DNA from: Marsupella aquatica
Taxonomy: Eukaryota > Plantae > Marchantiophyta
Direction of reading: 5' to 3'
NCBI GenBank assembly: GCA_973895155.1
Contig: OZ316891.1
Coordinates: forward strand, 16,061,137 to 16,125,136
Length of the DNA: 64,000 bases
The stretch's first letter is position 1. Each line of letters begins with the position of its first letter. Position numbers and translations under genes: made by a program. Positions 1-64,000 of this stretch are shown here, in pieces. The notes beneath the pieces were generated by a model that saw only the letters and a list, made by a program, of their open reading frames with translations, was not told the origin of the DNA and searched no databases.

Positions 1-1763
1 GGATCACTCACTCCATCTTCCCTGCCCCCTCGTTTGATATAGTCATCCCTCAGTGCTCCCCACTGCCTGATCTCCTCTTTGGTCACTCGTGCCGGGGGTC
101 CACGTTGCTCAATCTCATTGCCAAAGTGTGCAATCAGTGCCTGTCTTTCTCTGTAAGGGTGATCTGTCTTCAGAAAACGACGATGGCCCATGTATATCAC
201 TTTCTGCAGGGCTCTGGAGTACTCACTGGTGACATTGCGCCCACAGATAGTACAAGCACAATATCCTTTTGTTGTTTGGCCTGATATCATCCCATGGGCT
301 GGGTAGTCAGCTATAGTCAGAATGACAATGGCTCTAAGGATGAATGGGTTTAACCTCCCAAGCCTCTGTAGGACATCATATGTGAGAACTCCTTCCTCCC
401 AAAGCTTTCTCAATTCCTCCACTAGGGGAGCCAGAAACACATCTATGTTGGCAGATACAGCACTGTCTGGCCCTGGTATCAGTAGGACCATCAGAACAAA
501 AAATCGCTTTGTAGTCATCCAAGGAGGAAGGTTATAATTCAAAATAGTTACAGGCCAGCATGAAAATTTGTTGTTCTTGTCTCCAAATGGGTTTACCCCA
601 TCCAATGACAGCCCAAGTCTGACATTCCTCGGCTCAGCAGCAAATTCGGGATACATCTCATCTATGAGTTTCCATTGCCTTGAATCTGCAGCATGTCGTT
701 GTAGCCCATCATCACTTTTCTTGTCAGTTGCCCAAGTCATCATCTCCGAGATGGCACGGCTTCTGAACATCCGCTGAAGTCTGGGAATGAGTGGAAAATG
801 ACGAAGTACCTTGGCGGGAACCATAGACTTTCCTGAGTTCCGATACCTGTGCTTCCCACACTTAGGGCATGTCAACGATTCTTTATACTCCTTTCTGAAA
901 AGAACATGCCCATCAGGACAGGCATGGATCGAATCATAGTTCAATCCAAGATTAGATATGCATCTTTTTGCCTCGTACATGTTCTTGGGCAAAATATTAC
1001 CATCTGGTAGCACAGTTGTTCGCAAGAATGCCAACAACTCAGAAACCAAAACGTTGGGGACATTGTGGTTGCCGCAAATGTTCAGGAACATGATGACAAA
1101 TCCCAGTTTAGAACATTTGCTACCGGGGTACAAAGACTTCCTGCCTTCCTGTATTTGCAGGGGAGAGCCAAACATCCCATCATGCCCAGGGGTTTCCTGC
1201 CCTATCTCAAACTCATCAAGAGGCTCTTCGACAGGGGGCACACTTGCATCTGCAGCCGTATCCTCTTCATTGTCCAGCCCATCATGAAATGCATCCAAGT
1301 CTTGGAAGATGTCTCTCACCATCTCTTCCACATGAATTCCTTCGTCACGTGGTGCTGCCTGAGCACCATCCCGTTGGAGAGCTGACAACCCACAGAGACC
1401 AGCTACAACATTTTCAAATGCACCAGGCAGAACCTCACTTGCCCGTCTTGCAGCATTGGCAGCATCAAATTCTAACCTCCACTCCTCGTCGGAAGAATCT
1501 TCCTCTGCAGGATCATTCCAAACTCGATGTCGTGGATCTCTTCCATGAACCGCGATATGCCGCCAAACCTCATTCAGACCCCTGGTACGGGATCCTTGGC
1601 AGATTGCACAAGGACATCTCATCCTACTGGCTCCTGAAAGTCTGGTTCGTAACCTTTCACGCTGCCAAAGCTTATTATCATGGCGTGATATCCTTGTGGG
1701 ATGATGCAAAGGCAGTGCCTGTGCCCTGGGCTGGGTCTGGGGAGGGTGGTGACCAGGGTGCAT
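1..1763 (-). CDS. CACTA Tnp2/TnpD transposase (Transposase_21), runs off the window start
   Basis: Manual translation from ATG 1763 gives the RCPCAIC...RHIAVHG transposase-associated Zn motif and, in the same frame, LSLDGVNPFG...WPVTILNYNLPPWMTTKRF. Absent from the ORF track, consistent with no stop before the window edge. Confidence 0.93.
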   Translation of the reverse strand, partial: MHPGHHPPQTQPRAQALPLHHPTRISRHDNKLWQRERLRTRLSGASRMRCPCAICQGSRTRGLNEVWRHIAVHGRDPRHRVWNDPAEEDSSDEEWRLEFDAANAARRASEVLPGAFENVVAGLCGLSALQRDGAQAAPRDEGIHVEEMVRDIFQDLDAFHDGLDNEEDTAADASVPPVEEPLDEFEIGQETPGHDGMFGSPLQIQEGRKSLYPGSKCSKLGFVIMFLNICGNHNVPNVLVSELLAFLRTTVLPDGNILPKNMYEAKRCISNLGLNYDSIHACPDGHVLFRKEYKESLTCPKCGKHRYRNSGKSMVPAKVLRHFPLIPRLQRMFRSRAISEMMTWATDKKSDDGLQRHAADSRQWKLIDEMYPEFAAEPRNVRLGLSLDGVNPFGDKNNKFSCWPVTILNYNLPPWMTTKRFFVLMVLLIPGPDSAVSANIDVFLAPLVEELRKLWEEGVLTYDVLQRLGRLNPFILRAIVILTIADYPAHGMISGQTTKGYCACTICGRNVTSEYSRALQKVIYMGHRRFLKTDHPYRERQALIAHFGNEIEQRGPPARVTKEEIRQWGALRDDYIKRGGREDGVSD

Positions 1764-2196
1764 TGTAACAGGCTGGGAGCTCTGCAGTCATGGACAGCAG
1801 TGAACAAGGATGCCTAATGGTGGTATTTGTGTTCCATATATCCCTGACTGTATCTGCCAAAAGAGTTAACATAACGTGTACTAAATTCTCACAAACCCTA
1901 AACCACCCCAAAAGAAAAAAACAGGTTCGCAAGTAGTGTACCTATTGTCAAGTGAATGACACAAAATTTCTAAATGTTGGAGGGTGTCACCACCTCCTCC
2001 GCTGTCCTCAAATGTACCGCCTCTGCATGTACGTTTACAGTGACACCCCCAGGCAGCAGGAAACAACAATCCGCCAACAGTAAAATAAGCCCAACTGCCA
2101 CCAACCATAACAAGGTACATTAGTTCAAAGATCACATTTATTTCAATGATCTGATTTATACAAAAAAACTTGTGTCCAAACTGATGCTACTACTCC

Positions 2197-3075
2197 TCAC
2201 TCTGATTCAGAATCGCTAATGACCCATTCCTCACTTGTTGTCTCATAGTCCTCTCTGTAAGGATCCTGACCCTTCCGTGGCCAGGCCTCAAAAAGATCAT
2301 AGTCCATTGGGTTTTGACGCTTCCCAGCTGCTACTGATTCCACAAGCCAAGCATATGAAACCACAAACACATTATGGGACATGACATAAAAGCGAATGTC
2401 TCCCTTCCCAAACTTGCGGCAGGCTTTGGGATATGACTTAGTAATGACATGAGTGGTGTCCTCTGTTATATTCTCCTCCACTGTCCCACCTAGGTCAAGC
2501 ACTGTGGACTTGTACACTTTGCACTTAACCTCTCCAATTCCCGCCTCCACAAATACCATGCTCAGCCCTTTCAGAATGGGGGTTGGTTGCTTCGTCTCCT
2601 CAGCCAACATACTCTTCAGCCTTGTAGAGCTCTGTCCTTTGTTGAGTACAGGTCCATATTGGAGATCAGCAAGCCGTGCCTTTGCTTCCCAGACTTCTTG
2701 TTCAGCCCAAGCTGATGCAGTAGCTTCTTCATCCTCCCACAACTCATATTGCTCAGTATCCTGTACAATCTTATGTGCTATGGAATCTGTGATCCAAGAG
2801 GCCTCAACTACTTTTAGGCCTTGCTTAGTAATTGCAGAATTCATGTAGGACCATGACCACTTCTTTATCACTGATAGCCATGTCCCTGCAACAACATGTG
2901 TAGTCTCTGGAGTGATGTCCTGAACTACAGTGCCATGGAGCTCAGAGAATCGTTTCTGTACAGTTGGCCAATGCACTTTGGTCAACCCATGCTGGCCATG
3001 GACCAAAATCGCTCTGACCCCTGTAAACACTGCTGGGTGGTCACACTTTCTACGTTTACCAGGCTCCATGTACAC
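2197..3075 (-). CDS. Tandem BRCT-domain protein (CACTA cargo)
   Basis: Two BRCT repeats: GTVVQDITPETTHVV...VVEASWITDS and LGGTVEENITEDTTHVI...VVSYAWLVES. Open 292-aa ORF, preceded by a splice acceptor. Confidence 0.85.
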   Translation of the reverse strand: MYMEPGKRRKCDHPAVFTGVRAILVHGQHGLTKVHWPTVQKRFSELHGTVVQDITPETTHVVAGTWLSVIKKWSWSYMNSAITKQGLKVVEASWITDSIAHKIVQDTEQYELWEDEEATASAWAEQEVWEAKARLADLQYGPVLNKGQSSTRLKSMLAEETKQPTPILKGLSMVFVEAGIGEVKCKVYKSTVLDLGGTVEENITEDTTHVITKSYPKACRKFGKGDIRFYVMSHNVFVVSYAWLVESVAAGKRQNPMDYDLFEAWPRKGQDPYREDYETTSEEWVISDSESE

Positions 3076-3661
3076 ACACCCTACGTGATGACAGTGAATT
3101 TTGGAAGAATGGGTTCACCTGACAATACAAGGACAACAAAATTCCTGCTTTTTGAGTTGATCTGGCCCACTGGTGCTCAGGTCCGATTTTGATAGGTACA
3201 AGGGATATGTGAACAATACGTACTAGGCACCTGCACGGATGCAGGACATTGTTTGAATATATACTACAAAATCCATATCCGTGGTGAAATGAAGTGCAAC
3301 CAACTTGTCATGGCACATACATATTTTGTTGTAAAGGAGGATACATTCAATGACAAACTTATAGGGCAATTTGATTAATTGCATGCCTGATAATTTATAC
3401 GCTTACAACTTAGAAGTCCTGTTTTAATTTAGCAGTGTGATGAAAGTGTTTATGAAAATGACCACTCAGCCTAAATACTTCCAAGAAGGCTTGTAAGGAT
3501 AAGTTTGTATAGGCATGTACCCAGCCACTGACGCCAGAGCACAAGATAAGTGCTGCCTATATAAACTCGCCTACCCAACTCCTTTTCAAAATTGGAATCT
3601 CTGCAATCTCAAAAAATAGTACATCCACATCAGGTGCACTGTGCATGTACAATGTTCAGCT

Positions 3662-4342
3662 TCACAGCCAAGATATGTGATCTCTCACAGGAGTGCGCGA
3701 GGTAGGATCAATGGCATGGCGATGACAATAAAATATCCATCGATCAACACCATGTGCAGAGTGATCATAGATTTCTCTGTCACAAGCATAACCCTCTGCT
3801 TGATGATCTTTCAGGCAATGATAGTGCCACATAGTGGGACACCTAGCACAGTGGACTATGTCAGTCCAGTAGTCATCATCATGCTCACCACATGCCTTGC
3901 ACCTATGAAGTGGGCAAGCTGTGGCATGAGCAGGCAAACACTCAAAACAGAAAAATCTCACACAAAAACGGTCTGGACATTTCCTAACATTTGCTGCAGC
4001 ATCAACAGAGCCCTCATAGGACCCCAACTTCCCACACTGTGCACACTTAGCCTGCTTCTCCAAACAATCAGTGCACATCCAGTCTCCCTGGTGTGTTGAC
4101 GGGAGGCCCACCCCTGGACAGTTGTTTTCTGCAGCAAGGTCAGACTCCGGGTTGAGGTGGAAATGCCTCATGCAAGGGCCCTCACAAATGACCAGGCCCC
4201 CACCATCGTCACAAATGGCACAACAATGAGCTGCCTTCTGGAAAATCTGACTTGCAGAGAAGTTAGTAGCATCTGCCCCAAGTACACCTGTGTTTCTCAC
4301 CTCTGTCACACGCTTTTTGGCTTGAATTTTAGGCCGTGCCAT
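3662..4342 (-). CDS. EDM2-like composite PHD-finger-only protein (CACTA cargo)
   Basis: CAICDDGG..ICEGPCMRHFH...CTDC...CAQCGKLGS...CPLHRCKAC...CARCP..WHYHCL...IFYCHRHAID...TPVRDHI follows the PHD cassette of plant EDM2, including its TPVRDH end. Basic N-terminus (KKR). Confidence 0.85.
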   Translation of the reverse strand: MARPKIQAKKRVTEVRNTGVLGADATNFSASQIFQKAAHCCAICDDGGGLVICEGPCMRHFHLNPESDLAAENNCPGVGLPSTHQGDWMCTDCLEKQAKCAQCGKLGSYEGSVDAAANVRKCPDRFCVRFFCFECLPAHATACPLHRCKACGEHDDDYWTDIVHCARCPTMWHYHCLKDHQAEGYACDREIYDHSAHGVDRWIFYCHRHAIDPTSRTPVRDHISWL

Positions 4343-4353
4343 GCCTGCGCATG

Positions 4354-4497
4354 AGATAGACTCTACAATTTAGCAGACTGCACAGAAAGTAATATATATT
4401 TAGCATTTAAGGTACAAAGGCATTTAGATAGACTCTACAATTTAGCAGACTGCACAGAAAGTAAAATATATTTAGCATTTAAGGTACAAAGGCATTT
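4354..4497. repeat. Tandem duplication, 2 x 72 bp
   Basis: AGATAGACTCTACAATTTAGCAGAC...AAAGGCATTT starts at 4354 and 4426. Confidence 0.95.
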
Positions 4498-5112
4498 GCT
4501 ACTGCAATGAATTGGAATGGCCACACAAGGATGCAGAGCACACATACTTTTGGTATGTTGAGCCCACACACAAAACTGATCCCCTAATACAATTTCTCCA
4601 CCAACACCTCAATTTTAATTGTGGCTATGATTCACCAAAGGAGATCTGCAACAACATTTCATGCATTTGAATCACATACAATAGTCGTGACATGTAAAAC
4701 AGGCATTCTTCGAAGAGGATTGGTATGAAGCAGTGTCATAAGGGTTGAAATTTATACATCCTAAATAGGTTATGATAGTGGCTGAGACAAATAAGTGAGG
4801 CATAAATCATTTTGCATATTATCACATGGCCCATTAATTCATTCAACGTTGCAATGTTCACCAGGTTAAAGCAGTCATGAAAGCAGTCTTTCAATAGAGA
4901 CTTTTATGCGAGTTTGCTAGCCTCTTAAATTAGGATATTTTGCTTAGTGCAGGCATAATAGGATATAAGTTATATACTGTTGACCCTAAACCCTGGACCC
5001 AAAATTGCTCATACATCAAAATTTTAAGTAAATATCCTCTGTGTTGAAGTCAGAGTGTTAAGCTATAGGTCAATGGTATCTGGTCTGTGCATGCGGTGTG
5101 ACAAGTGGTCCT

Positions 5113-5562
5113 CTAGAGCATGTGATCCAAACATGTGTAGACACCAAAGTCACCGGTGGTGGGGTCTGGGAGGGCAGGACAAGTGACATCACCAGGCACA
5201 CTGCAGGATGGCGAGTGGTTCCAAATGATACATTGTGCTCTATGCAAAAATCGGCATCCAAGAGAACGGTCATCCAATTCTGGGCCAGAAGCCCTACAGG
5301 CAGGACAGTCATATTGGCAACTGTGTACACACCCTTGGCACCTAATTTGTGGCGGGTCATGTACAAGAGACACAAATACCAAGGATGTCGGGAAGGGTAC
5401 TGAAGCAAGTAGAGGCCGGCTGTAGTTGTTCCTGGAAACAACAGGGTACTCAAAGTACCATGCAGACTGGGCTGGAAGGATCCCAAGTCTGACATACTCA
5501 AGGCGCAACATCTCTGCCTTGCGTGCAAGTCGCACATGTTCAGCGTTGCGGGTCCTCACCAT
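5113..5562 (-). CDS. Unknown 149-aa Cys/His-rich protein (possible CACTA cargo)
   Basis: ATG-started ORF, co-oriented with the other cargo ORFs, with CQGC-x3-C-x3-CPAC and further C/H residues. No family recognised. Confidence 0.4.
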   Translation of the reverse strand: MVRTRNAEHVRLARKAEMLRLEYVRLGILPAQSAWYFEYPVVSRNNYSRPLLASVPFPTSLVFVSLVHDPPQIRCQGCVHSCQYDCPACRASGPELDDRSLGCRFLHRAQCIIWNHSPSCSVPGDVTCPALPDPTTGDFGVYTCLDHML

Positions 5563-6557
5563 AAGTGTTGCTTTTGTTGTGATGTCCTCTGTTCACGTCC
5601 TTTGATGAGCAAGGTGAGCAGGAGGTCGACTTGCCTCGCCAACAGCAACCACCTAAACTAATCAGTTCCCACTCAACTACAGGTCATAGTATACACATAG
5701 CATGAAACGTGCATAGTACATATTTGATTCTGAGTTTATGAGTTTCCTAAGACAAAGAGCTTGGTGATAAACCCATATTCTCGATGGACATGTATATCAA
5801 TCGTATTAAAATCCTGTTTTTTCATCCAGAAAGACCGAAAGTCTCACCTTGCAGGTTGCAGCAGAGAGAAAATTCACTGGTTGTCGTGTTGTGCAAGTGA
5901 ACCTCCACTGATGCCCCCGGTGTAGCCCCTCAGATGCAGGTGACACTTACCAACTCCCAAGTTGCCTGGTCTAACAGAAAATGCTTATATCTTCAGAACT
6001 TTATAGAGCAAGTACATGATCACATACTTCTGGATCTATTCATATTTGGAACTCTTGCCAACTACAACTCCCATTATGCACAAGCTCACATCAACAGAGA
6101 AAAATACAGAATGCATACTTACTATGGCTCTAAGCACCTTCACTACCTTGTTGAACCCAGTCCTGAAGTCTTTTCAGCGTGTTTGTTGTGCTGTCTCCTT
6201 TGGCACCCAACACCTTAGTCCTTGATGTAACAGAATGCGATTTTACAAGTTAGATGCTTTGGAACCTTCTATGGTCTTAGCTGAATTGATGTCATCGTAA
6301 GTGGTGAAAGACAAGGAAGACGAAAGCTGGTTGAAGAGCTGTGGACAACACACTAGCATGAAGTGCTTCAACCAATCCACTGCCAAACGGAACTCTTACA
6401 CAGTCACATTCTTTCAGTAAACAGAAACTCAATCAAACTTCATAATCAAAGTACAGACTCTGAAGGACCAAAGGAGGATGTTGTGAGTTTCTCTGTTGTT
6501 TAATGTGTTACCCTTCTAGTTTCGAAGTTAGCAAATGCTGAATAATGTGTCTACCAG

Positions 6558-6897
6558 ATCTTCGAAAAGAAGCCCACCACAATTAAGAACTTTGGTATCT
6601 GGGTGAGGTATCAGAGTTGTACAGGTTATCCCAACATGTACAAGAAATATTGTGATACCACATTAAACAACCACACAGCAGATGTATGATGAGATGGCTT
6701 CTTGTCATAGAGTTCGGTTCCCTTGCATCCAGATCATCAAGACTACGACAGTCCCTGTCTCTCTGTGCAAGCGAGAAAGTACCAAGCAGTTCCATGATTC
6801 AAAGATCAAGTTCCCCTTGACGTACCGCAAGATTCAACCTCCATCGCGAAAGCTAAAGACGACTTACAAGGCCACCAAGCCCAACACATTTGTTTGA
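6558..6897 (+). pseudogene. RPL18A: Captured last exon of 60S ribosomal protein L18a (eL20), frameshifted
   Basis: Acceptor CTACCAG|ATC, then [24 protein letters not shown]...[21 protein letters not shown]...[17 protein letters not shown]...[15 protein letters not shown]. Confidence 0.93.
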
Positions 6898-8736
6898 GTA
6901 GTGCGGGTGTAGGTTCCCAATTTTGAAACAATTTGGCTCATTTTATGTCCCGAGGGACTCCAGGAGTTTATGTATTGAGTTTCTAGGTCAAGATGCTTAA
7001 TATAAGGAAATTCAATTATCACCTCGTTCCCAACTTCTATTAATTGAATATACACAAGCTGGAAGCAAGAAGACAAGCCACAATCTAGCATCTTAGCCAA
7101 ACACAATCGTCCCGACAAAGCAAAACTCAGCTGGACAGAAGTCACTCGGATCCACAAAAAATTGAAGATTCACCTCCAAGCCGGAGGCCGATCACTTCAG
7201 TACAGCAGCTTCTGGACGGAACAAACTCTGCTCAGCCCCACAAAAACACAAATGTTAAGGCTCCAAGTCAGAGCTCACAAACAGAAACTCAGATAAATAA
7301 CATTCAAAATCTGTCCAGGTTTGTGCAAAGTGTACATATTCATTCTTCTGGAATGAACACGCAATGCATACATCGCCTAGACACAGTCATTATAAATCAT
7401 TGGGCAATTGGGGACCACTAAGCAGGTGTGTTCCTATTTCGAGGCTACAAGAAAGGATAGAGTGACACCAAACTGAAGAGTACACCAAAAGAAAAACAGC
7501 AAGAACCAAAGTCAATCATGTGTGGATATTTTGCACATGGGAAGTTCCCCTGAAGAAGCACCAGTTGCTAACATTGTCACCCGAACCACACCCAGTTTAT
7601 TACCTCAATGTCTTCAGCCTCAATATCCAATCCTCAGCCCCCTGGTGCTTCCGTGTTTGTTCTGAAAATTTCTGTGATGAAATAATTATTCAATACATTC
7701 AATAGCAAAGAGAACTCAATCACAAAAGAAAAATAGTTAGTGTGAATGCTAATTTCTCAACACTTAACTAAATTCAAACCACCAATTCAAGTAGTAAGTT
7801 TCAAAAACTTGCCTTTACATGAAGAGAAACCAATTGGCCATGCATGTTACTAAAGCAATAAACAAATAATTAGGCTCAACCCCGGGCTCAACACACAGGC
7901 AAACTACTCGAAACATGCTGCTGAGAAGTAACATTTTTTGAATGTCAGACTATGTGTAAGTGCCATGATCGTGCTCCTACGTTTCACAAGGAGGGCTGGC
8001 CCGAAAGGGAGAAGCAACAATGTGGAGTCTATACACGTAGCACAAATCCCAGTTTAGAAGGGTGGATGAAGTTCAGACAAGAGTTCAGAACTTGCCATTT
8101 GAGATTGCCAATCTGAACTTCACATTCAGACAGGACTTCATCCAGTTCAGGAGTTCAGATAGGAGTTCAGACAATCTGAAGAGGACTTTGGACTTGAATG
8201 AGGGACAGCGTGGCCATATAGTTATCCTTGTGGCCTTCAGCTGCGTGTCTCAGGCTGAATTTCACTTTCCAGTTTCGAGAGTTCTGAAGGTCTAGTTTTA
8301 GTAACTTCCTCCTGACTCGACTTGGGAGCATTCTCCCTATTTGCTAGCTTGTAGTTAGCTTTGACTCCTGTGAGCTTAGTTGACGACCCTCTTGAGATAT
8401 TAACAATTAGAACAAACACAAGTTGTCAAGACAGATTCCACCGGAGCAAAAAGTCCAAAATCAGGTGAAAGAAAACCTAAGGAAAGTCCATAAGAACGAA
8501 AGTAGGAAGGCAGGTGCACGGGCCACCGAGAAAAGTAAAGGATGCATGTGATTAGTGGGGAGGGATCTTAGCAAAAATAGGGGAAAGCAAGGGAACTTGC
8601 TGCTAAAATCAGCTGAACGATTGCACGGTTCCTATAAATTTAGTGGACCTTAAGGCCGTCTGTTCAGCCCCCCACCCCATTGCCAGAGCACGGGGCACAA
8701 GGCATGTTCTGATACAGGGAGGAGCAAAACAGTCAT

Positions 8737-9782
8737 GTCAAGCAAGAAATGTGGAGAGACCAATCAGTAAGCAAAAATAGGGGAGAACATACATACATGA
8801 TCAGCAGCAGCAGGAAACAAGAAAGATGATTTTGGGTGGCATCTTAGGGTCGGGGACACCACTGCAACACCGGGACTTAGGATATGAGTTGTTCTTAATC
8901 TGCTAGTAGCATCCGGCAGGCCGGCGACCCATGGCAAAAGGGCAGAGCAACAATCCGCTAAAACTACCGAGTCTCACCTTTGCGCTACTGACTGTCACCT
9001 TTGTCCAAGGTAGCTAGTAATAGCAAGTTGAAGTCCCGCTCCAAGTTGTCGGCTTCCACTCCAAGCTCCCTAAAAGATTGTGGCCTCAGGTCCAAGTCGT
9101 TAGCTCGCACGCGCAACTCCCTAAACCTACACACAGCGGAAGCTTAGCTCACCAACAACTTGCAGAAACAATGACCTCCCCTCTGAAACTGATAAAAACA
9201 CCTGAATACAAATAGTGAAGCACGAGGACAGAACAGGGAGAAGCGTTTTGCAGTTTGGGACGACAATGCTAGGAGTGTATACACTTCGGGCAACAGGGAG
9301 GTCCAATAATAGTTTGAATCTGACGGATGAAGCTCTAGGCGAATGAGCTCCAGGAGATTGGGTGCATGATTGAGTAGGCAATTGTAACAGCAGGCACCTG
9401 GCGATTGAAGGAAGCAGCATTCGGCAATGGACCTAGGCAGCTCGCGAATTTTGCTCAGCAGCGATGTCACCTAGACCCTAAACACGCAATGCATACATCA
9501 CCTAGACAACTATACTTGCAGCCACGAGGTGAGTCCGCGATAGGGGATTGAAGGAAGCAGCAAGTCAAGCAAGAAGCGTGGAGAGACCAATCAGTAAGCA
9601 AAAATAGGGGAGAATAGACATACATCAGCAGCAGCAGGAAACAAGAAAGATGATACTCTGTTCCATCTTAGAGTCGGGGACACTACTGCAACACCGGGAC
9701 TTAGGATATGACTTGTTTTTAAACTGGAGATAGCATCCAGCAGGCCGGCGACCCATGCCAAAAGGGCAGAGCAGCAATCCGC
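8737..9782. repeat. Diverged ~220-bp direct repeat (8737-8958 / 9564-9782)
   Basis: GTCAAGCAAGAA...GGAGAGACCAATCAGTAAGC...GGCAGAGCARCAATCCGC is present twice. Confidence 0.9.
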
Positions 9783-11727
9783 CATGTAGCGATAGGCGAG
9801 AGCAGCGATTACGACGATGAAAGATGGTCAAAGCTGAAGCAAAACCCCTAAAGATGCAGCTTGGCCATACTCTCTTTCCTCACCTCATAGCGCTAGGCAT
9901 TCAACCTCCCTCTTCAATGAACCTCACAACAGCTTGAAGGTCGATAGATTTTACCTCGTCTCCTGAGCAGAAACGTCTGCATTAGCTGAACAGAGCCCGG
10001 AACAGAGCTATCGCATTTAGCCTCCCGACTCCAAAATTGAACGCAACACAACCTCCAACTCCCAATGGCAGCTCAGTAGGTTGATCAGCTCGGTCAATGC
10101 AGGTCAGTCGACCTCAATAGCCACACTAGAAGCTCACCGCAAGTCACTCAAAGGTCAGACTAGAAGCTCCGCCGCCTTCACACCGTAGCAAAAAACAATG
10201 AGACCAATATCGAGCAAGGCGACCCTGTTTGAATATTTGGCGACCATCAGGCTCCACCCCTCCTTTCTCGCTACCGTTCCCCCATGTGATGGTTAAGCTT
10301 CTGAGGACACAATCAATCGCACAAATGTAGCTTAAAGCAGGACCTCACTAAGCAGACTATCGGTTAGGACCTTATAGACATAGAGATAGATAGGTCAATG
10401 CAACCTTACTTGGGCCGATGCAGCATGTCTCTTCACAATGTGAAGCAGCGCAGCATTCCTCCACCTAGCTCGCAGTGATCCTCCGCCTTGCTTGCAGTAA
10501 CCAGCCTCCGCCTAGCTAGTTTGCACTGTCACGGCTGCAACTTTTTGTGCAATGACTTGGCCCTCCTACCAACTACGAGCTCCCAAAAGTATGTCGAGCA
10601 GATGTACACTCAGGCACCACCTCGTAGAGCTCAACTCCAAGTCGGCAGCTCTCACTTGAAACTCAATAGCAGCTTAGCTCACCAGCAGGTTGAAAAGCGA
10701 CAATGGACTCCCCTCAAAACTGATTGGCAGACCTCCACACTGACGCTCGTAGCAGGCCCAATCCTAAACACATTTGCACCCTAAAGTCCAGTCGCGCTCA
10801 AACACTTTCAAACGACCCTGCAGGAAGTTCGCGAAGAGTGCAGCTGGAATGAAGGTCGTCGACTCCCAATTTCCCTCGCAAAACCAACCTCTGCGGCACA
10901 CTGACCCTGAACACTTAGGGCAAGTAGTACCCCCAAAATCTCTCGCAAAACCAACCTCCAAGGTACACTGACCCTGAGGGAAAGTAGTACCCCTCACATG
11001 TGGGCAGCCATCGAGTGACTTAGCAAACAGGTTGGTTTGGACATAAAAGAACCAATGCAAATGACTTAGCAAAAAGTTCAATGTGGGGAGAGTGCACTTT
11101 GGTCAAGAACAAGGCCAAATATAGTCAGGTATGAATCCACATTATAAGTGAAAGTACCCACCATTCTGATGAAAACCCCCATATTTATACCCATTATATT
11201 TGGACTTATTGAACCATGAGTGTGCAATATGTAGTTGCACCGGGAGTTGCATATTAGGGATTGGCATCCGAAATTGGCTAATGGGGTATGCATGCTGACG
11301 GAATTTTAAAAAATGATGTCCAATTCATATTGCACTATTGTGGAGTAACTAACATAACTTACCTATTTCTTACTTACTAGTGTTACAATAGCGACATTGG
11401 ATAAAGTTGTAAGCATGACTTCCCACAACCTCACCAAAACTTAGTTGGTATGATGTAACTAACATGACACCCACAAACTTGGAGTCGCATATTTATGAAG
11501 GTCTCGCACAAGTCACATAGGGGAGGGTCTCAGAATGGGTGGTTTTCTTCTAGTGACACCTGGGACATTGGACAGTGGCGCATGATTTACTGTACTCGCC
11601 ATGTCATCCCAAAGGGTTCTGATATCCCTAGTACCCATGACTAGACCAGCATGACTGCTACTAATTCCACCATCTTATAACTTGAACCTTTTTTGTAGTG
11701 GAACCATAAGACAACCTAAATTATATG

Positions 11728-11871
11728 AACTTAAGTATTTGGTTGAATGCTATGGATTGACTTAAGTATTTGGTTGAATGCTATGGACTTAAGTATTTCG
11801 ATGAATGAAATGGACTTAAGTATTTGGTTGAACAAAATGGAATTTTGATGAATTGAAATGGACTTTAAGTA
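11728..11871. repeat. Degenerate tandem repeat, ~27-31-bp unit (ACTTAAGTATTTGGTTGAATGCTATGG)
   Basis: About 4-5 visible units sharing the ACTTAAGTATTT core. Confidence 0.85.
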
Positions 11872-12023
11872 AGTTTCATTGACTACAATAGATTGAGTGT
11901 TCTGATGACATTGTGAATGGTTGACTTGAGTCCTGACTTTTTCCATGTCTGTCCATTGTTGTATGACAGGTTCATGTACCTAATCCCTATCCCTTACTTT
12001 CACAGCCTGTATAACTGTCCATC

Positions 12024-15897: not shown

Positions 15898-16139
15898 TAT
15901 GACATGGGTAACGTGTCACTTAACCGAACCCAGGTCGTAGATTAGGTTTTATACGGTCATAGGACCGTAGCCGTAGCGTAGAATAGCACGTATAACCGTC
16001 TATTGCCATTATGAATAGATTAGGAGTAGGTTTAAGTTGACCAAATGATTACAAATTTAGGAGGAGGATTATTACGCGCGACCGAGGTACGATGGCGGCG
16101 GTGGAGTCACTAGAAGAATCCGAGGTGAACTGAGACCGC

Positions 16140-16460
16140 AATATGTGACTCATTTTGGGTCATGTGACTTCATTGTGACTCAACGTGACTTGACCCACGC
16201 TGTGACCCTTGGAGTTGCAAAAGTTGAGACCAAAAAATGGAAGTCACTATTGATACTGGGCTTTGCAACTTGCTTGATACCCATTTGTGACTGATCTGTG
16301 ACTTTATTGTGGAGTCTAGCCTTGTTTCTACGTGACTGCAATATGACTTCAGCGAGTCACATAGTAAGTCACATACATGACTTACCCGCATTCAACAACG
16401 ACTAGCGTGTGACCATTTAGTATCACAGGAGAGACCAATGGAGACCCTGGCCCGTGTCAC
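16140..16460. repeat. CACTA subterminal (T/C)GTGAC(T/C) motif array
   Basis: More than 10 copies in both orientations next to the TIR, as expected for TnpA binding sites. Confidence 0.8.
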
Positions 16461-16961
16461 ACAACAGAACCATTTGGGACTCTATATACTCATGTTTATA
16501 ACTAATAAGGTTCACATGCAAGTTATAACCATGACTAATGAACACAGAGGGACAGTTCATAAGGAGAGAGAGCACTCCACATTACAATACATAGAAACTG
16601 ATGTTCTAACTTTAGAAATATAACACATTGAATACAAGAAATGAACATAGCATGAATGACATCCACATGAAACAAAGCATCATATAAGCAGATCCTACAT
16701 AAAACATTCATAAGAATTAAACACAATCACAATCTTGCTAAAAAATGAAGATCATTTGAATTCCAATGGAATAGTTTACAATGTGATCAATGTAATTCAG
16801 ACAAAATAGGAACTCATAATTGATGACTGCAGGATGAGATAACTGAAAGCACATGCATGATACTATGAATCTCCAAGAGGACATGATTCTTGTACTGCTT
16901 CTTGACATCTAAAATCTACATAACATGACTCACACTACAAACAAATAATGGCATGACATTG

Positions 16962-19900
16962 TTATGGATCCTCTATGAACTTGCTTGGCCATAATACCAA
17001 AGAACCTGCAGCATCTCCAAGTGTCTTTTGAGGAGGATCATCATTTGTGTTTGGAATGGGAAGGACAGCTTTAGGTTTCACTAGTAATGTGACTAACACT
17101 ACTGAATAACTTGGGGGAATCCTCTTGCCATGGAACGTTGTGGAACCAACCTGCACTCTGCCAAATCCTACTCGTGTTCCACTCTCATCAACAGCTAACA
17201 AGCCACTTTGTCCCTCAGCATTAAGTGCTTTCCCCACTTCCACTTTAGATCTTTTTGCCAGCACCGTTCTTGGAGGTTTGTATGAAACCTTTGACGTGGC
17301 TTTGCTCCCACCAGCAGACTTGCTTCGTGTGCGCATGCTTCCTCTCTTCACAGTAGTGAAGCTAGGCTCAGTAAGTTCCTCTGTTAGGACTGTCACAGTA
17401 GCAGGTTCATCACCTGGGAGTGTCATACCAACTAACTCTTTGGTTGGATTTATCTCAACAAGAGGCACACCTGTCATTGAGAATGATACATTCTGCAAAT
17501 CATTTATCTCTGCAATGGAGTCAAGATCTACATAGCATGAATCTGGCTCAATGGTATCATTGTCATGCTTGCTGATATCCTCATTTGCCCCAACATTGAT
17601 ATCATCCACTCCCTTGCCAATGTCATCCTCATCCAAACATGGTTGACTGCCCTCTGTCAAACAAGTTGCTTGTACAGACTGCAACTTTGTTGCCTCTAAA
17701 TTACAGCGAGTATTTGCCAGGTTCTCATATTTCTTCTCTGTAGCACCTGTCTTATTCTCTATGGACACAACAACCACAATATATGTTACTGAAAATAACA
17801 CATTCAACAAACAATGTCAATTCAAACTATACATTTAATAATCATATCCCACACAGTTGTAAAGGCCTTACCTTCAAGCCTACATGTCGTTGGCATGCCA
17901 AAAGAGTGCATCGACTTTGCCACCTCAAGTGGTGATGGTGGAACTCCTGCAGAATTGGAATCAATTTTATCTCTCACCGACACAACAGCTTCCATTAATG
18001 TCTTGAAGTTCACATGGAACAAGTCAATCAATGAATTCAAATGTTCATTGATCTCTGGAAGACATGTTTCGACAGCCTTCAAACGACCACTTATCTCTGT
18101 AAGTGAAGATCCACCTCCCTACATGACACATGGGTATAGGTTCAATCACTCCATATGAAATGTTGGGCAATATATGCACAATCAATGTTATATACAGTGT
18201 ACACCTAAAATTCAACGCAGGTCATTCAATTACCAATCAGAACTCATATAACTTACATGCTTGGAGGATTCAGATGCACCCTCTTGAGCTCGGGTGTTCA
18301 CAATTTTGGCCCTCAACTCTTCTTTTGAAGGGCTTTGCCCCAATTGGGTTTTCTGCACATGCATGGCAAACACAAGTTATCGATCAATATTCAGGGAACG
18401 TACACTAAAAAACAAAGTTTACATGTATGGGTTTACACTAAAAAATAGTACATAGTGTAGCATAAATTACATAGCTAGGCCATTCATTCTTACCAAACGT
18501 TTAGCTGTCGGTGTAGTGCCGGTCCTTCCTGTCAGATTAGGGTTCTGAACACTCAACCTGGCCTCGGTCATCTGTGAACTCTTCTTTTTTGAAGCATCTA
18601 TTACAAAATAAGCTACTAACCTTGCCCACACTTTATCATCACAACTGGCTGGTGGAGGCATATCTGGCTTCTCCCCACCTTCCTTCCAAGCCTTATGCAT
18701 TCTCCACCTCTCTTGCTTGATGATTTTACCTACTGTACTCTCTAGGCAACCTATGTCCACGCCATCATCACTGCCCACATAATTCCATTTGCCAGCAACA
18801 TTTTCACATACAGTCTTCCAATCTTTTAGATGTTGTTTTTTAAAATTAATAACACTCACATCTAACCAACGCAATACTTCAGCTTTCAAATCAGCATGCC
18901 ATCGGTTCTTGCGAGGACACTCAGCATCCACCCATTGTCTCTCATTCAACTTTACGTTCCCTTTCTTTGTCACCTCCCCTCGTGCACTGCTCTCGGTAGT
19001 ACTGGGCGTTGTATTGGCCACCCCTTCATTCACCCTACCTGGGGTTCTGAAGCCACCTGGGAAAATATAATGCCATTCATGCTTGAGAACTACATACAGC
19101 AGAATGGATGACAGCAACATTCAATGCTTCACTTCAAGAAAAATTCTTCAAACATACATACCTGTAGCTCTGCCTGTAGATGCCTGTGCAGGGACTGCAC
19201 TCTGAAATTGTTGCGACCCTGGACCACCTGTCCAGCCTAGTACAGGGGCCGAATGATGTCACTTTCTAGGTATGTGTGTGCAAACATATGTACTGAAAAC
19301 TAAGTACAAACTGTAGGAAAACAACTGAACATTCACCGACATACCTGTCCCCCTTCCGTGCTGCATCTGCATAGGGGCATTAGTGAATACTTGAGTCGAT
19401 GGTTCGACTGTCCAACCTGCACACATACATTTTCTATCATTATACATGTGCAAAATCCCCCCCCCCCACGTGAATGGACTCCAGATATAATGAGTTCTTC
19501 CATTGCTGACAAGATCAGACATTACTTGCCCCTCTTCCAGCGTTTGTAGGTACTGTATTTTGATATCCTTGCCAATTACCTTCACCACCTTCCCAACCTT
19601 GTTCATTCCACGACCCACCACCATCCTCCCAACCTGGTTCAACCCATGTTTGTCCTTGTGGACATTGGAACTGATCATTACTAGCATTTGCCCAATCAGG
19701 TTGGGCAGAATCTGCATGCAATGGTAGGTGGACAGAATTTCATGTTGTCTGAATCCAATACATCCCAAACAATGTCAAAAATTGATATGCAGTCTGAAAT
19801 TCAGGAGTGCCATGCCTTCACAAAGAACTGGCATATAGATATATACTCACATCCCCATGGTTGAGGTGGACGTCCAAACCCATGAGACTGTGGGTTTGGA

Positions 19901-20455
19901 CCTGCTCTGCCTCTACCATGGGCATAACCTAGAGCTTGCCCCCTGCCATAGTATTGGGCACCAGCCTGGGATCTACCACTACTACCACCTCGCCAACCTT
20001 GATCAAAGGTCAGCCCCCCCTGCTGGTATGGTGCATGCAAAGGCTTTGAAGGCAAAACAAAACTGGTAGGACGCTGCATCACATCACCAACTACAATGTC
20101 AAGAACTAAGCAAGGTACATATGTGTAGTACTGAACATATGAAACCTCCAAATAAGAGTTTTTAACTCAAACCTTGTTGGGAAAACTACTTACCTGTTTC
20201 TTTTGGGGCTGCTCTGCAATGTATTCATCTTCATAACCCCCATCCTCATCCATTTCCTCTGGAAAATACTCATCATCTGTATCTTTTTGTCTAGTGTCTG
20301 CACCCACCTGTGCAGCATCCATGTCATCTCCACATTCTGCCATTGTAGGTACCACCTTCTTGCTCAACCTTTCACTCCGACGCACACGCCCAGAGATAGT
20401 GTTGGACACCCTTCTTGCATACTCCTTTCGTTTCTTTGAAAATTCTGTGGTTCTG
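16962..20455 (-). CDS. Multi-exon TnpA-like gene (Ptta/En/Spm-type domain plus C-terminal En/Spm Tnp1-type domain); exon bounds approximate
   Basis: WARLVAYF...KKKSSQMTEAR...NLTGRTG (18467-19120) and VGFGRV...FHGKRIP..YSVVLV...LPIP...TLGDAAGSLVLWP (16962-17810), separated by GT-AG introns. Confidence 0.75.
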
Positions 20456-21044
20456 CAACATTCCAATATGAGAATACAATCACAATTTCAGTGCCACATT
20501 GAACTATTCATGTCACACAAACTCACTGCAGGATCATATTAGGATCCCCAGGAATCCTGCCATCTTGCATTGCATCATTCATTTGATCATCAAGCGACTG
20601 CGGTGATTCTTGTAGCAAGTGGCGAACCTCCTCTCTTTTTCTGCATCAACAATGTTTTAGTCAGGCACCAAAACGCATTGACTCCGATTCAAGACTGTAC
20701 ACGTATCGGATGTGATTGCAAAGACACCCTTTGGCCAAATGCTGATGGTCAAGAGAAAACCATCTGCACTAAGAGCTGAATAGTCAAGCATATGGAAGCC
20801 CCCAAATTCCGAAACGACAAGACCCATGGGGGGCGAAGAATTTACAAAGCCGGCATGGAAGTAAAAGATTTCAGACAGATAAGATATCTGAAGGAGAACT
20901 CTTTGGGAGAAACAATTACATCCATCGTAAAATACACCAAGATTGAAGAAAAACAAGCTGAATAGGCAGATTACAGGAATGTAAAAATTCACATCAGAAA
21001 AGGAATAATATGAGGCTGGCTATAACAACCAAAATAAGATCTCC

Positions 21045-21308
21045 TGACCTCCAGAAGTCAAGGGATTAGCATTTTGGGCCACATTTTCCTTTAGAAATAT
21101 CTACAGCTTGGTTATACACTACATTAGTGTGCGTACAACTTTGTAGACAGGTGACCTCCAGAAGTCAAGGGATTAGCATTTGGGCCACATTTTCCTTTAG
21201 AAATATCTACAGCTTGGTTATACACTACATTAGTGTGCGTACAACTTGGTTATACACTACATTAGTGTGCGTACAACTTGGTTATACACTACATTATTGT
21301 GCATACAG
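21045..21308. repeat. ~107-bp duplication followed by a 32-bp tandem unit
   Basis: TGACCTCCAGAAG... starts at 21045 and 21152; CTTGGTTATACACTACATTAGTGTGCGTACAA x3 at 21213-21308. Confidence 0.92.
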
Positions 21309-22104
21309 CTAGACCGGTTTGTCAATCCTACGAATGCTTTGAAGCTTCATGCCTTCCACTACTTCTAGGAGACTCCTGCAACTTCCACCATCCTGTTGAG
21401 CATCGTGTTCGGCAAGGACCGCATTTGTTGTCTGAAATTTTTGCAGAATTGCACAACAAGACCAACCTGTGATGGCAAAAGGGCTGTGTGCGCGAAGAGT
21501 GTCTAAGTAGGGCACGTTCTTTTCTTCGTCAACCACAGCACCAGGTGGTCCACCATCACTGTACAACATTCTGGTGGCCCTTGGATCATACAGTTCTGGG
21601 TATAGTTATGGTCGCATGCAAAGATCTTGGACCCCTGGCGTTGAAAGAGAGAGTGAGAGAGATCCGATTGCGCCCTTACGGCATTCTTTCATTTCATTCC
21701 TTCGGTGCCTAATCGATTATCCCACTGCCGCCCACCCATCAACGTGACACCAATAATTTTCTCACATCATTGCTGCACTGATTCACAACACTATGCTATA
21801 ACTACAGAGGGGGAGACGACAGACGGAAGCAATCAAGAGCACCTGGGGGACCGTGGTGTCTCTCTCACCATAGTAACCGAGCTTCCAATCCTGCAGCGTG
21901 TTTGGACAAATATACTAAACAGAGGTAGTCATGTTTTCATTAATTTGGATGAAAAGGCTCTAGAGCAGCAACCACATAAGATTAACGGAGCGTCTTCATT
22001 GTAAAGATTCTTTCCGTCCTCCAACATAGCATTCATCTATACGTTAAAGAAGAAAGAACAACGAGAATTTCAGTGAGGTGAAATAGGAGGACAAGGATCC
22101 ATAG

Positions 22105-22450
22105 GCAAGTTTGCAAAGGCCTTTGCCACCGTCACACCATCCTTCTTAACTTCACGATAACCAAAACTTTGCTCTGTACCACATTTCGACCTTGGAAAAG
22201 AGTTACAGATTCACAAAGCAATGAGTGATTGGTACAAGGATGTCACGCACCTACGACACACCTAGACATAATTTTATGAGGGACGGACAATAATTACGTT
22301 AAGCAGATGTCTTCTACACCTTTGGGCCCATGGTAACCTTCTCAGCATTCGGTAATTCATCAACACCTTGGAGTGTAAGAGCCCTCGAATTGCCTCGACT
22401 CCAAACCTGGTATCCTTCGATCCATAAATTTGCACCAGTTTCGACCTGCT
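22105..22450 (-). pseudogene. HSP60: Captured, decayed mitochondrial chaperonin-60 exons
   Basis: YGSKDTRFGVEA / RALTLQGVDELPNAEKVTMGPK [intron ~22192-22319] GRNVV / EQSFGYREVKKDGVTVAKAF matches the GroEL/Cpn60 N-terminus, with frameshifts. Confidence 0.85.
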
Positions 22451-22924
22451 GCATTCTCAACTCCGAATCAGACCAACACAAGAGCATCTGTCTGGTAACT
22501 GCGTTAAGGACAAACGCTCAGGGTCAATTGCTACGATCTAAAAACATAGTACAGATGGACGGAGAGTTACAATTCACCTCCAATGCTGTAATTCGAGAGT
22601 ACGAGGTTGTGAACACTACTTCTTCACATGCTTCCTAGTTAGTATAGTACGACTATGTCTGCTAGCGACTCTACAATCTGCCGGATGGATAAAATCTACC
22701 GGCAGTGGATGGAATCTTTGGAATTGGGAACTGAATAGTCGAATCTATCCAGGACCAATTCAATAGTGAACTATTTGGACAGGAGGGTCCGTAGTGCACA
22801 TAGATACTGGAGTAACCTCACTTCTCATCGCACTGTTGAACGAATCAAGAAGCATAAAATTGCCAACTTCAAGAGAAAAAACACACGACCTACTTCATGG
22901 TTGACTGAAAGAAAAGCCACCCAC

Positions 22925-23037
22925 CTGCCTGGCCGCAATTTGAGTGTAGCGGAGAAATTTGTGAATGTTCCTGTACTCTCTGGAGACAAGGATTCACCTC
23001 GCGTCCAATTATCAAACGACCCCATCACTGTGACGTC
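22925..23037 (-). pseudogene. PTST1: Captured CBM48 exon of a PTST1-like (PROTEIN TARGETING TO STARCH) gene
   Basis: AG|DVTVMGSFDNWTRGESLSPESTGTFTNFSATLKLRPGR|GT resembles the PTST1 CBM48 exon. Possible decayed upstream exons (NVKTEL ~23535) extend toward ~24560. Confidence 0.75.
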
Positions 23038-26000
23038 CTGGCAAACAAAAGCATTAGTATAGAGAAGGAAAAGAACGACAACAAAAACCAAGATCAGATC
23101 TAATTTCAACAGGGAACCTATCAAATACTACTCAATACAATAAGGGCCAACTCGCATGTGTGCGTCCTCAAAAATGCGGCCCTTGGCCTACGCAAAAAAC
23201 AACCCTTGATCATCAGAAGCAAGCAAGGCATGCGATGGATCAAGAAGTCAATGCAGTTGCCCCCGGTGAATTTCTGTGATTCCCTCCGCCCTCGTGCACT
23301 TCATTGTGGTTGCGCCCCATAGTTAAATTATTGTTGAGAAAACTGTTGCATGCCAATCTGAAGAACACGAAAACAATTTTGCCTCTGCAGCTCTTTACGA
23401 GTAGTCATTCTGAGCTGGGACAGGGCAGAAAGGACACGCAAACACATTGTCGTCATTCGTTAATGCCAGGATCTCATATTCGAGGTAAGGTAAATACAGA
23501 GTGTTCATGCATGAACCTGCATCTTGGCAGCTCAGTCTTGACATTGTACTTGACAATCGGACGTCTTAGAGAATTGAGATATCTCTTAGGACAATTGAAA
23601 CTCAGGCACTCTCTTCAGTACTATCGAATCCAAGATGCGAAAATGGATACTGAGATGGCAGCTCAAAGCAGCTTTGAAGCAACATAAAAAACCTTGGGAT
23701 AAGGCTACCACCGGAGGACCCCAGGTTCTGGATAGTCACTTCCAGAAAGCAAGTGGGTTCCAAGATCATGGAACGCCGTTGTGTGGAAGCCTACACACAT
23801 GTGTTCGCTATCACCCAAGGCAAAGCCAAAGGATCTTGCTTGAAACTCTTTCTCAAGATGTTCAAAATCATTGTTCTCTGCCACGGGTGACTCTTCAGAG
23901 CCCTGAAATTATTCGATAGTCACGCCTACTACGATTACCGCCTCATCAGTGAGCTAGAAGCAAATCTTTTGCAAGATGAAGCAGGCCGAGGAAGGATCAG
24001 CAACTTAGTTGGAGAATCGGAAACTCCAGCTATAAAACACATATTCCCGGATGATCGCTACACCAGCGAACGTTCACAAACACGTCCTAAAGTATCACAA
24101 TATTGTCACCAATCCTCACTTCCTTATAGAATACAACGATTTCTCCGTGGATTATTTGGTGCACAGTGACACGAGGGGAAGAAATGATGAAGAAGCAAAA
24201 TATGTTTTCAAAGGCATAACTCTATAAATCCAAGCTCCCAGTTCGCAAATCCATCTTATTCCACTACGTACCATGACCAAAATCTCATACCCTAAAAAGA
24301 TGCCCTGCAGCTCCCATACACTACTTTGTCCCAAAATACAGATCCCGGCTCTTACACAAACCTCAAGAAAAGATAAACCCAGGACCTGATCACCTCTTCC
24401 GCTTACTACGACCGTGTCCCAGCAGGGATTCCAAAGACGAAGACAAAAGAAAATGCACTACAAGATGGGGTGAATAATCGACTGACAGCCAAGAATAGAA
24501 GAGCAAACGAAGAAAACCCACCTTGCAACACTCACAAAATGCTGTCGCAGGCTCTGCATTGTCGCAGCCCGCTGACTGCCCGTATCATGAATTGCGCATG
24601 AAGCACTACTGTAAAACTGCAAAACCAGCAACTTAACTCGGACGACAGGCTGAATGACAGTTACTTTCCAAAGCTCTCGTTGTCTTTGCACGCCCTCACA
24701 CCACTCAACTGTTGAAGGGCCACGCAGCAAAAACCTACTTTTCCATAGCGATTGAAGCTCATAGTCTAATGCTTTAATCTACGTCCTAAGTGAAAGTTTG
24801 CAAATCGAGCAAGGTGACCCTGTTTGAATATTGGCGACCATCAGGCTCCACCCCTCCTTTCTCGCTACCATTCCCCCATGTGATGGTTAAGCTTCTCAGG
24901 ACACAATCAATCGCACAAATGTAGCTTAAAGCAGGACCTCACTAAGCACACTATCGGTTAGGACCTTACAGACATAGAGGTGACATAGAGATAGATAGGT
25001 CAATGCAACCTTACTTGGGCCGATGCAGCATGTCTCTTGACAATGTGAAGCAGCGCAGCATTCCTCCGCCTAGCTCGCAGTGATCCTCCGCCTTGCTTGC
25101 AGTAACCAGCCTCCGCCTACCTAGCTTGCACTGTCACGGCTGCAACTTTTTGTGCAATGACTTGGCCCTCCTGCCAACTGTGAGCTCCCAAAAGTATGTC
25201 GAGCAGATGTACACTCAAGCTCGACCTCGCAGAGCTCAACTCCAAGTCGGCAGCTCTCACTTGAAACTCAATAGCAGCTTAGCTCACCAGCAGGTTGAAA
25301 AGCGACAATGGACTCCCCTCAAAACTGATTGGCAGACCTCCACACTGACGCTCGTAGCAGGCCAATCCTAAACACATTTGCACCCTAAAGTCCAATCGCG
25401 CTCAAACACTTTCATTGCCCCCTACAGGAAGTTCGCGAAGAGTGCAGCTGGAATGAAGGTCGTCGACTCCCAATTTCCCTCGCAAAACCAACCTCCGCGG
25501 CACACTGACCCTGAACACTTAGGGCAAGTAGTACGTGCCCCAATTTCTCTCGCAAAACCAACCTCCAAGGTACACTGACCCTGAGGGAAAGTAGTACCCC
25601 TCACATGTGGGCAGCTATCGAGTGACTTAGCAAACAGGTTGGTTTGGACATAAAAGAACAAATGCAAATGACTTAGCAAAAAATTCAATGTGGGGAGAGT
25701 GCATTTTGGTCAAGAACAAGGCCAAATATAGTCAGGTATGACCCCACATTATAAGTGAAAGTACCCACCATTTTGATGAAAACCCCCATATTTATACCCA
25801 TTTAGATTTGGACTTATTGAACCATGAGTGTGCAATATGTAGTTGCACCGGGAGTTGCACATTAGGGATTGGCATCCGAAATTGGCTAATGGGGTATGCA
25901 TGCTGACGGAATTTTTAAAAATGATGTCCAATGCACTATTGTGGAGTAACTAACATAACTTACCTATTTCTTACTTACCAGTGTTACAATAGCGACATTG

Positions 26001-26501
26001 GATAAAGTTGTAAGCATGACTTCCCACAGCCTCACCAAAACTTAGTTGGTATGATGTAACTAACATGACACCCACAAACTTGGAGTCGCATATTTATGAA
26101 GGTCTTGCACAAGTCACATAGGGGAGGGTCTCAGAATGGGTGGTTTTCTTCTAGTGAGTAAAAATCCATTAGGAGAATCACGCTTGGACCGAGGCGCCGA
26201 CTTCAACTCATTATCGACGACCAAAACGGCCAGGCCTCCTCACGCTCGGGCTCATCCTGGCACCTCCATAAGAGAGGAGCCGATGGCGTTGTGAGCTATT
26301 TGCTCATTTCTACCTTTTGGAATTTGCGGACGCTGCCATTCACCCGCCTTTTTGCTCGAATCAAGCTGACCTTTACAAGGAGATTATCGAGGGACAAGAG
26401 CAGAATGTGGCGAGATTTAGTCAGGACGAGCAAGGCCTCCACAAGCACGAGGACCAGTCGGGTGGGAACGCGGACTCGACGAACCGGACTACAAGGTTAG
26501 T

Positions 26502-63731: not shown

Positions 63732-64000
63732 TTCTCCATACCATATTAACAGTTGCGTCCGTATTATATCCGATCAATGAGCGCTATTCCCCTCTTTGTA
63801 ATCGGTTGGAGAGACGTTACTCATTGCGAACGACAAGATTCAATTTAATTTATCAGTGACGGAAAGCGACAACTTAGAAATTGCGATAAGTATTAATGTG
63901 AACTAAGCTAAAATGTTTGCGTGATAATCACGCTGAACATTAGTTACCGTTAAAAGTTACCGTTGTCTCAGCACCTTGCGAACAAACATGCAATGCCAGC

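Follow-up and report, generated by a model that had tools for sequence, protein, structure and literature searches.

A CACTA transposon of the liverwort Marsupella aquatica carrying a probably maintained, remodelled EDM2-type PHD-cassette gene

The window analysed here comprises 64,000 nucleotides of Marsupella aquatica (Marchantiophyta; assembly GCA_973895155.1, contig OZ316891.1, positions 16,061,137 to 16,125,136 of the forward strand) and begins within a CACTA transposon (1..11555, minus strand). At 3662..4342, also on the minus strand, this element encodes a 226-amino-acid protein with a basic N-terminus and an EDM2/NSD-type PHD1–PHD2–PHD3 cassette, the stop codon following immediately 3' of the cassette. 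It is likely that this open reading frame (ORF) is a maintained accessory gene of the transposon: it is placed inward of the CACTA terminal inverted repeat (TIR) and ahead of the transposase, with which it shares a strand; an intact BRCT ORF adjoins it, and its family is old, distinct and constrained. A preliminary description, made from the DNA letters, had taken the protein for a heterochromatin reader that the element keeps as a decoy, an anti-silencing factor or a means to process its own long transcript; the retention it assumed is supported, whereas the specific EDM2-like function is somewhat disfavoured.

The PHD-cassette gene and its stand-alone family

The PHD ORF runs uninterrupted from 4342 to 3662, and the features first ascribed to it, namely an open PHD-only frame of 226 residues with a basic N-terminus and a stop right after TPVRDHI, hold true: the C-terminus reads TPVRDHISWL, the stop falling three residues past the motif, and the first 25 residues contain six lysines or arginines against two aspartates or glutamates. 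The term intronless refers to the coding stretch only and was judged from the DNA. Three NSD-type PHD models of Pfam match residues 39-93, 96-140 and 148-180, each under its curated cut-off, and a profile of six family sequences retrieves the NSD2/NSD3 PHD cassette from the PDB (E 1e-10); full-length grass EDM2 is matched by the family at 30%, and the top Atlas cluster for the ORF (0.92) is a streptophyte PHD_NSD cluster. The two and a half atypical PHD fingers of the EDM2 type are present, with PHD2 remodelled. The label 'EDM2-like' is right, because the C-terminal motif TPxRDH is common to the PHD ORF and plant EDM2-like proteins and is missing from non-plant NSD-like outgroups. The structure model of the protein is poor (predicted local distance difference test score, pLDDT, 48.8), and the matches that a fold search with it gave were weak PHD/PZP rows, none of which reached E ≤ 0.001.

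In a protein search with the PHD ORF, five of 123 candidates passed, all of 217–245 amino acids and with identities of 82, 75, 53, 37 and 38%, as did none of 340 longer candidates, the latter being weak evidence. A profile search gave 564 matches, and from the 150 listed together with the protein search a short PHD family of 19 proteins was assigned by eye. Six of these relatives are complete, another has a late start but extends to the end, seven can be followed part-way and then continue into unrelated sequence, and five are partial; the run-on class does not distinguish frameshift from intron read-through. With 13 of 19 members partial or broken, the family shows a transposon-like pattern. 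Disruption in most members had been named beforehand as an argument against retention, and it is seen to this extent, though a transposon gene can be expected to have broken copies. No annotated member was found in NCBI or UniRef among the eight short-family clusters looked up, nor was an annotated host gene closer than 35% to the PHD ORF. A metagenome scan yielded 11 loci from 221 matches, none of them of the short family (they comprise a grass EDM2, PHD-only proteins of grasses, and PHD genes that are unrelated), and pattern matches in viral contigs were confirmed in 0 of 42 and 0 of 128 cases.

Several lines of evidence speak for constraint. Start and stop positions are kept across 37–82% identity within the short family, and in seven near-complete relatives the predicted zinc-ligand positions are kept at 164 of 168, against 560 of 1127 for other positions. 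Half or more of the region's words occur in five of the 12 listed sequencing runs, from three coded organisms (no RNA run is listed, which has no bearing on expression), and contigs were mapped from seven of the 12 (X2, X7, X10, X11 and X12 being left out, and X8 and X9 giving one contig each). In contigs of four runs, the 40 variants listed of 50 in the PHD ORF comprise 16 synonymous and 24 non-synonymous changes and no stops, whereas the neutral synonymous expectation is 21% (p 0.005), or 27% if transitions are strongly favoured (p 0.047). The two variants that fall in ligand codons are silent, and over positions 1–12000 the 12 indels listed of 129 all lie outside the transposase (Tnp2), BRCT and PHD ORFs. 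In one run, contigs 87–89% identical occur at a depth of 2,600–2,900 beside contigs at a depth of ~30. These data give moderate evidence that the PHD ORF is under constraint, which is not a codon-model result. The claim that the gene is kept, and is not a one-off host copy, is thereby supported: the gene has stand-alone relatives of matching length, which group in a separate clade, stand at 30–35% identity to the best long relatives and keep the zinc ligands, and its copies carry a purifying signal.

The CACTA element and its BRCT gene

The 5' end of the element lies at 11555 and its 3' end beyond the window start. The 5' TIR (11545..11555, minus strand) is 11 bp long, begins with CACTA and is present in three exact copies in the window, against 0.05 expected. 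Since a sister element has the remaining two copies at its ends, and the inner 1.35 kb (10209..11555, minus strand) is 95.4% identical over 1363 bp to the sister's corresponding end (24804–26157), position 11555 is a real CACTA terminus. A CACTA-like end at 11700 is ruled out as the element terminus by this shared 1.35 kb and by the sister element. The stretch at 11556-11700 represents a further CACTA-type end, which differs from the first and lies 145 bp outside the TIR; apparently, the cargo element inserted close to where another CACTA ends.

Inward from the TIR, the order is the antisense RPL18a fragment, a 149-amino-acid ORF, the PHD ORF, the tandem-BRCT ORF and the transposase, which lies 1.9 kb downstream of the PHD ORF on the same strand. 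The Tnp2/TnpD transposase (3..1787, minus strand) is open to the window edge, with 595 amino acids seen, and matches Transposase_21 (E 1.8e-70) and Transpos_assoc (E 1e-4); the CACTA context given earlier is thus real, both a CACTA-type TIR and Transposase_21 being present in the cargo element and the 3-bp duplication (AGT) being seen at the sister element. We infer the continuity from TIR to transposase. The element's ORFs are depleted in CG (0.23–0.39), as expected of methylated DNA.

The tandem-BRCT ORF (2197..3069, minus strand), on which the preliminary description was silent, is intact, encodes 290 amino acids and sits between the PHD gene and the transposase. Pfam BRCT matches it in two stretches (E 2e-13), with an internal repeat (E 1e-11). 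Its stand-alone relatives, of 294–295 amino acids, share 60 and 54% identity (two of 1261 candidates), and an alignment of four sequences has 126 invariant columns. The structure model is again poor (pLDDT 34.1). The second BRCT may resemble that of plant DNA polymerase lambda, a likeness not confirmed by PDB searches, which for a source gene gave only weak matches to Rtt107, ligase IV and BRCA1 and none to polymerase lambda. The RPL18a fragment (~6330..6897, plus strand; Ribosomal_L18A E 1e-5), antisense to the element's genes, is decayed, as had been stated: its frame changes near 6667, and stops lie upstream. Because two intact host-derived interaction modules precede the transposase while RPL18a has decayed, selection for an accessory function is suggested.

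Further features of the element surround the PHD gene. Just upstream of its start codon lies a 72-bp tandem duplication (4354..4497, strand not assigned), whose two copies are 99% identical. A candidate splice-acceptor AG stands shortly ahead of the PHD (~4345), BRCT (~3082) and transposase (~1854) frames on the minus strand; such sites would fit alternative splicing from a single upstream promoter. The 149-amino-acid Cys-rich ORF with a basic start (5113..5562, minus strand) has no Pfam match, no usable Atlas match and a low recognition score, and is possibly a third cargo gene or non-coding. It is overlapped by a 155-amino-acid ORF in a different frame, and in runs X1 and X3 no other bin reaches its summed contig depth.

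Nevertheless, a number of observations weigh against a maintained gene of this element. In run X1, near-identical contigs over the transposase, BRCT, spacer and RPL18a start have similar depths (1514–1799), but the terminal 7.7–11.1 kb stands at 474–498, about one third of this core, contig depth not being equated with copy number; the core block behaves as one unit, yet may have other termini. No sequencing-run contig connects the PHD gene with either the transposase or the TIR, CACTA linkage is demonstrated for the window copy only and not for the protein relatives, and the sister element is without a Tnp2, PHD or BRCT gene, tblastn within the window finding a single copy of each. As to constraint, the ratio of non-synonymous to synonymous polymorphism (pN/pS ~0.40) is crude, as it uses the best-supported rows, counts same-codon neighbours apart and includes differences private to the window copy. 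No indel in the PHD ORF is among the variants listed, and gaps occur there in three low-depth contigs. Database ORF calling is, moreover, biased to intact copies.

Ancestry, divergence from EDM2 and possible function

The short proteins form a single clade in every tree: seven rows at 99 in a quick tree of 109 rows, nine rows at 99 in a tree of 33 rows hand-picked from ~160, and, in a careful tree of 29 rows computed without the long rows P0037, P0127, P0043 and P0004, eight of eight rows (100/100, with a stem length of 1.98). In the best tree, the family joins, weakly (68/73), the methyltransferase-less EDM2-like paralogs of the liverworts Marchantia, Riccia and Calypogeia. By the approximately unbiased (AU) test, nesting with angiosperm EDM2 is rejected (p 0.01) and grouping with all canonical EDM2 is not (p 0.35). 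The stem is long, and the liverwort paralog group would be the best but a weak candidate for the donor gene. These paralogs (MPTK1_1g03210, MPTK1_4g03050 and those of Calypogeia and Riccia) likewise end at or soon after the cassette and give the top-scoring long match, but they are annotated host genes, mostly of 619–768 amino acids, are only 32–34% identical, and keep both the PHD2 His and, in six of six, the acidic residue discussed below. Annotated PHD-only EDM2-like genes exist in Marchantia (MPTK1_4g03050, 280 amino acids) and in grasses, and therefore the PHD-only architecture alone is not new. The grass PHD-only proteins with a basic N-terminus (L002-L007; P0033, from Eleusine, P0035, P0043 and P0054) group with angiosperm EDM2 and are, as judged from sequence, an independent truncation.

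EDM2/ELP1 of Arabidopsis and MPTK1_2g00350 of Marchantia share with the window protein the same 2½-repeat atypical PHD cassette and the C-terminal TPxRDH at 30–35% identity, whereas the latter is transposon-encoded, falls in a separate clade and has changed in several respects. Proteins bearing the methyltransferase motif have, in 50 of 50 cases, an acidic residue within four positions before the first Cys of PHD1, as have the six liverwort paralogs and 60 of 66 others; among scorable short-family rows the count is 0 of 16. As in AIRE and BHC80, this position is presumably one of the residues used for K4. In PHDs binding unmodified H3K4, acidic residues have this role (PMC10124903). The protein may still bind H3, because the acidic pair inside PHD1 is retained. 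The His ligand of PHD2, present in 50 of 50 EDM2 proteins, is Cys in 11 of 16 short-family rows, the rest being truncated or unscored, and the spacer after it measures seven residues in eight of eight short-family proteins against a median of 27 in 106 long ones. The 15 residues before PHD1 contain 1.4 acidic residues in the short family, with its 40-residue basic N-terminus, against 7.5. Besides the PHDs, EDM2 is described as having RFD, acidic and methyltransferase-like domains (PMC7529245), all missing from the short family. A DNMT1-RFD match is seen in long proteins only, and the N6-adenine methyltransferase-like (ELP) domain is absent through a stop codon directly after the cassette, which is kept in the relatives.

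The EDM2 PHDs bind H3K9me2, and the ASI1–AIPP1–EDM2 complex promotes distal polyadenylation (PMC7472560, PMC7529245). With the acidic residue lost, PHD2 remodelled and the other domains missing, it is unsafe to carry this H3K9me2 reading and the ASI1/AIPP1 partnership over to the transposon protein. Its histone preference has probably shifted from that of EDM2, and it probably does not read histone marks in EDM2's way. The proposal of a heterochromatin reader that acts like EDM2 or via ASI1/AIPP1 is thus not supported as it stood.

If the PHD ORF is a maintained accessory gene, the cassette would derive from an EDM2-like gene of a seed-free host plant, captured by an ancestral element that then shortened and retained it. 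Since it is without a catalytic or recognisable sequence-specific DNA-binding domain, the protein would work through partners, the simplest being the element's own TnpD/TnpA, and may help these to reach or stay on nucleosomal DNA at the element ends or target sites; the BRCT protein could play the same adaptor role toward break-repair factors. That the PHD protein is a nuclear adaptor tying the element's own proteins to chromatin has, in our estimate, somewhat less than an even chance. A broader picture, in which a CACTA lineage of seed-free plants built a two-gene host-derived accessory module, the remodelled PHD cassette steering the machinery to chosen chromatin or shielding the element from silencing and the BRCT protein recruiting break repair to excision and insertion sites, is speculative and rather doubtful. 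If true, a plant DNA transposon would possess two separate subunits of host origin, one to read chromatin and one to recruit repair, the PHD and BRCT pairing joining chromatin access to break repair within one element.

Among the alternatives, it is unlikely that the protein reads H3K9me2 chromatin as EDM2 does, being a decoy for or a recruiter of ASI1–AIPP1–EDM2 and so giving full-length transcription of a methylated element. The homology does span the whole EDM2 cassette including the C-terminal motif, the activities of EDM2 and its complex cited above would suit such a role, and the element is CG-depleted, with the transposase as its most distal gene behind ~10 kb of element sequence; the retained acidic pair and the placement with canonical EDM2, which is not rejected, also fit. 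On the other hand, the acidic residue that all methyltransferase-bearing EDM2s possess is gone throughout the family, the remodelled PHD2, the missing domains and the rejected angiosperm nesting also count against it, and the AIPP1-binding region of EDM2 was not located in the accessible literature. An anti-silencing factor that acts alone in the manner of VANC, its remodelled fingers and basic N-terminus binding element DNA or another ligand and lowering methylation, appears quite improbable. It would suit the net acidic loss and basic gain of the N-terminus, as well as the 72-bp duplication upstream of the gene, VANC targets being tandem repeats, and both VANC and TnpA are described as transposon-encoded accessory activators (PMC5735166; bioRxiv 10.64898/2026.08.24.746577). 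However, no search gave any likeness to VANC or to the TnpA helix-turn-helix domain, no VANC-type Pfam family matched, the element family has its own TnpA-like gene (a weak match), and a duplication of two copies is not an array.

The third alternative is a passenger: an old captured fragment would have stayed open here mainly through the youth of this copy, and its constraint would go back to the small family of host PHD-only genes from which it came. PHD-only or nearly PHD-only host paralogs do exist in Marchantia and grasses, gene-fragment capture is common in CACTA elements (PMC8978399) and RPL18a also sits inside the cargo element; further, the run X1 copies are near-identical to the window, with 0–1 differences over 364–549 bp, and only six of the 19 relatives are complete. 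Yet such a passenger is improbable in our view, as no annotated host gene above 35% was found, the high-depth variants at 87–89% show a synonymous excess and neither stops nor indels among those listed, RPL18a has decayed in the same element while the PHD and BRCT ORFs have not, and start and stop positions persist over the range of identities in the family.

Known systems offer partial parallels to the accessory gene preferred here. The NSD2/NSD3 cassette (PDB 7cro, 7crp; PF23011, PF22908, PF23004) has the same three-finger arrangement, but lies within a large SET-domain enzyme and is without the plant C-terminal motif. PHD fingers reportedly also occur in CR1-like elements. They have been described on the Rehavkus transposase (PMC6446971) and on the polyprotein of a Chlamydomonas Gypsy element, Gypsy-7a (PMC9940879); these are likewise mobile-element PHDs, but single fingers fused to a transposition protein. 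CACTA/EnSpm elements with extra genes, such as Spm with TnpA/TnpD, Peptidase_C48 CACTAs and the Chondrus elements with 4–5 ORFs, are similar in TIR, Tnp2 and additional coding sequence, be it accessory or captured, as well as in the 3-bp duplication seen at the sister element. VANC of the Mutator-like VANDAL elements, known as an accessory anti-silencing gene (PMC5735166), is also a small separate gene kept by a plant DNA transposon, but it encodes a sequence-specific DNA-binding protein with shown activity, whereas the window protein is a host-derived PHD cassette known from sequence. A preprint comparing 962 Spm protein structures mentions 'various accessory proteins', with 'PHD' missing from its main text, although its supplements may list it (10.64898/2026.08.24.746577), and both 'PHD' and 'BRCT' are missing from the main text, supplements aside, of reviews on giant transposons and on Chenopodium CACTAs (PMC6431247, PMC8978399). 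A full-text literature search, most of its matches being judged by their listed entries and with Repbase and most subscription papers outside its scope, found no EDM2-type PHD or BRCT gene in a CACTA element. What is new is that a CACTA element carries a tandem-BRCT gene together with a remodelled, probably maintained PHD gene of the EDM2 type; transposon PHD fingers, accessory anti-silencing genes and PHD-only EDM2-like proteins were known. Plant transposon factors that deal with host chromatin are few, mainly VANC and TnpA, which bind DNA directly, and a maintained PHD cassette would add another route. In addition, the 226-amino-acid protein offers a compact natural version of the EDM2 cassette that differs in defined ways (acidic residue lost, PHD2 shortened), which eases testing of EDM2-type PHD recognition.

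The sister element and other features of the window

The sister CACTA element (16108..26156, minus strand) is complete and has 11-bp TIRs at both ends, an AGT/AGT target-site duplication and TnpA-like pieces. A Transposase_24 (TnpA-like) match is found in this element only (E 0.007, under cut-off); in the cargo element, a gene of this kind would be situated outside the window. Being without Tnp2, the sister is likely non-autonomous. Its left end bears short subterminal repeats, and its TnpA-like gene looks spliced.

Elsewhere, a 428-amino-acid ORF (12024-13310, plus strand) with CxxC/HxxxH-like motifs and no Pfam match is preceded by four tandem repeats of 27-31 bp (11719-11841), and this region is probably another transposon. 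Several related repeats of 94-96% bearing long coiled-coil ORFs occupy 26400-54000 and are probably nested retroelement-like sequence. Finally, a run of 130-240-amino-acid open stretches on one strand (59400-63800, minus) may represent a broken or spliced gene.
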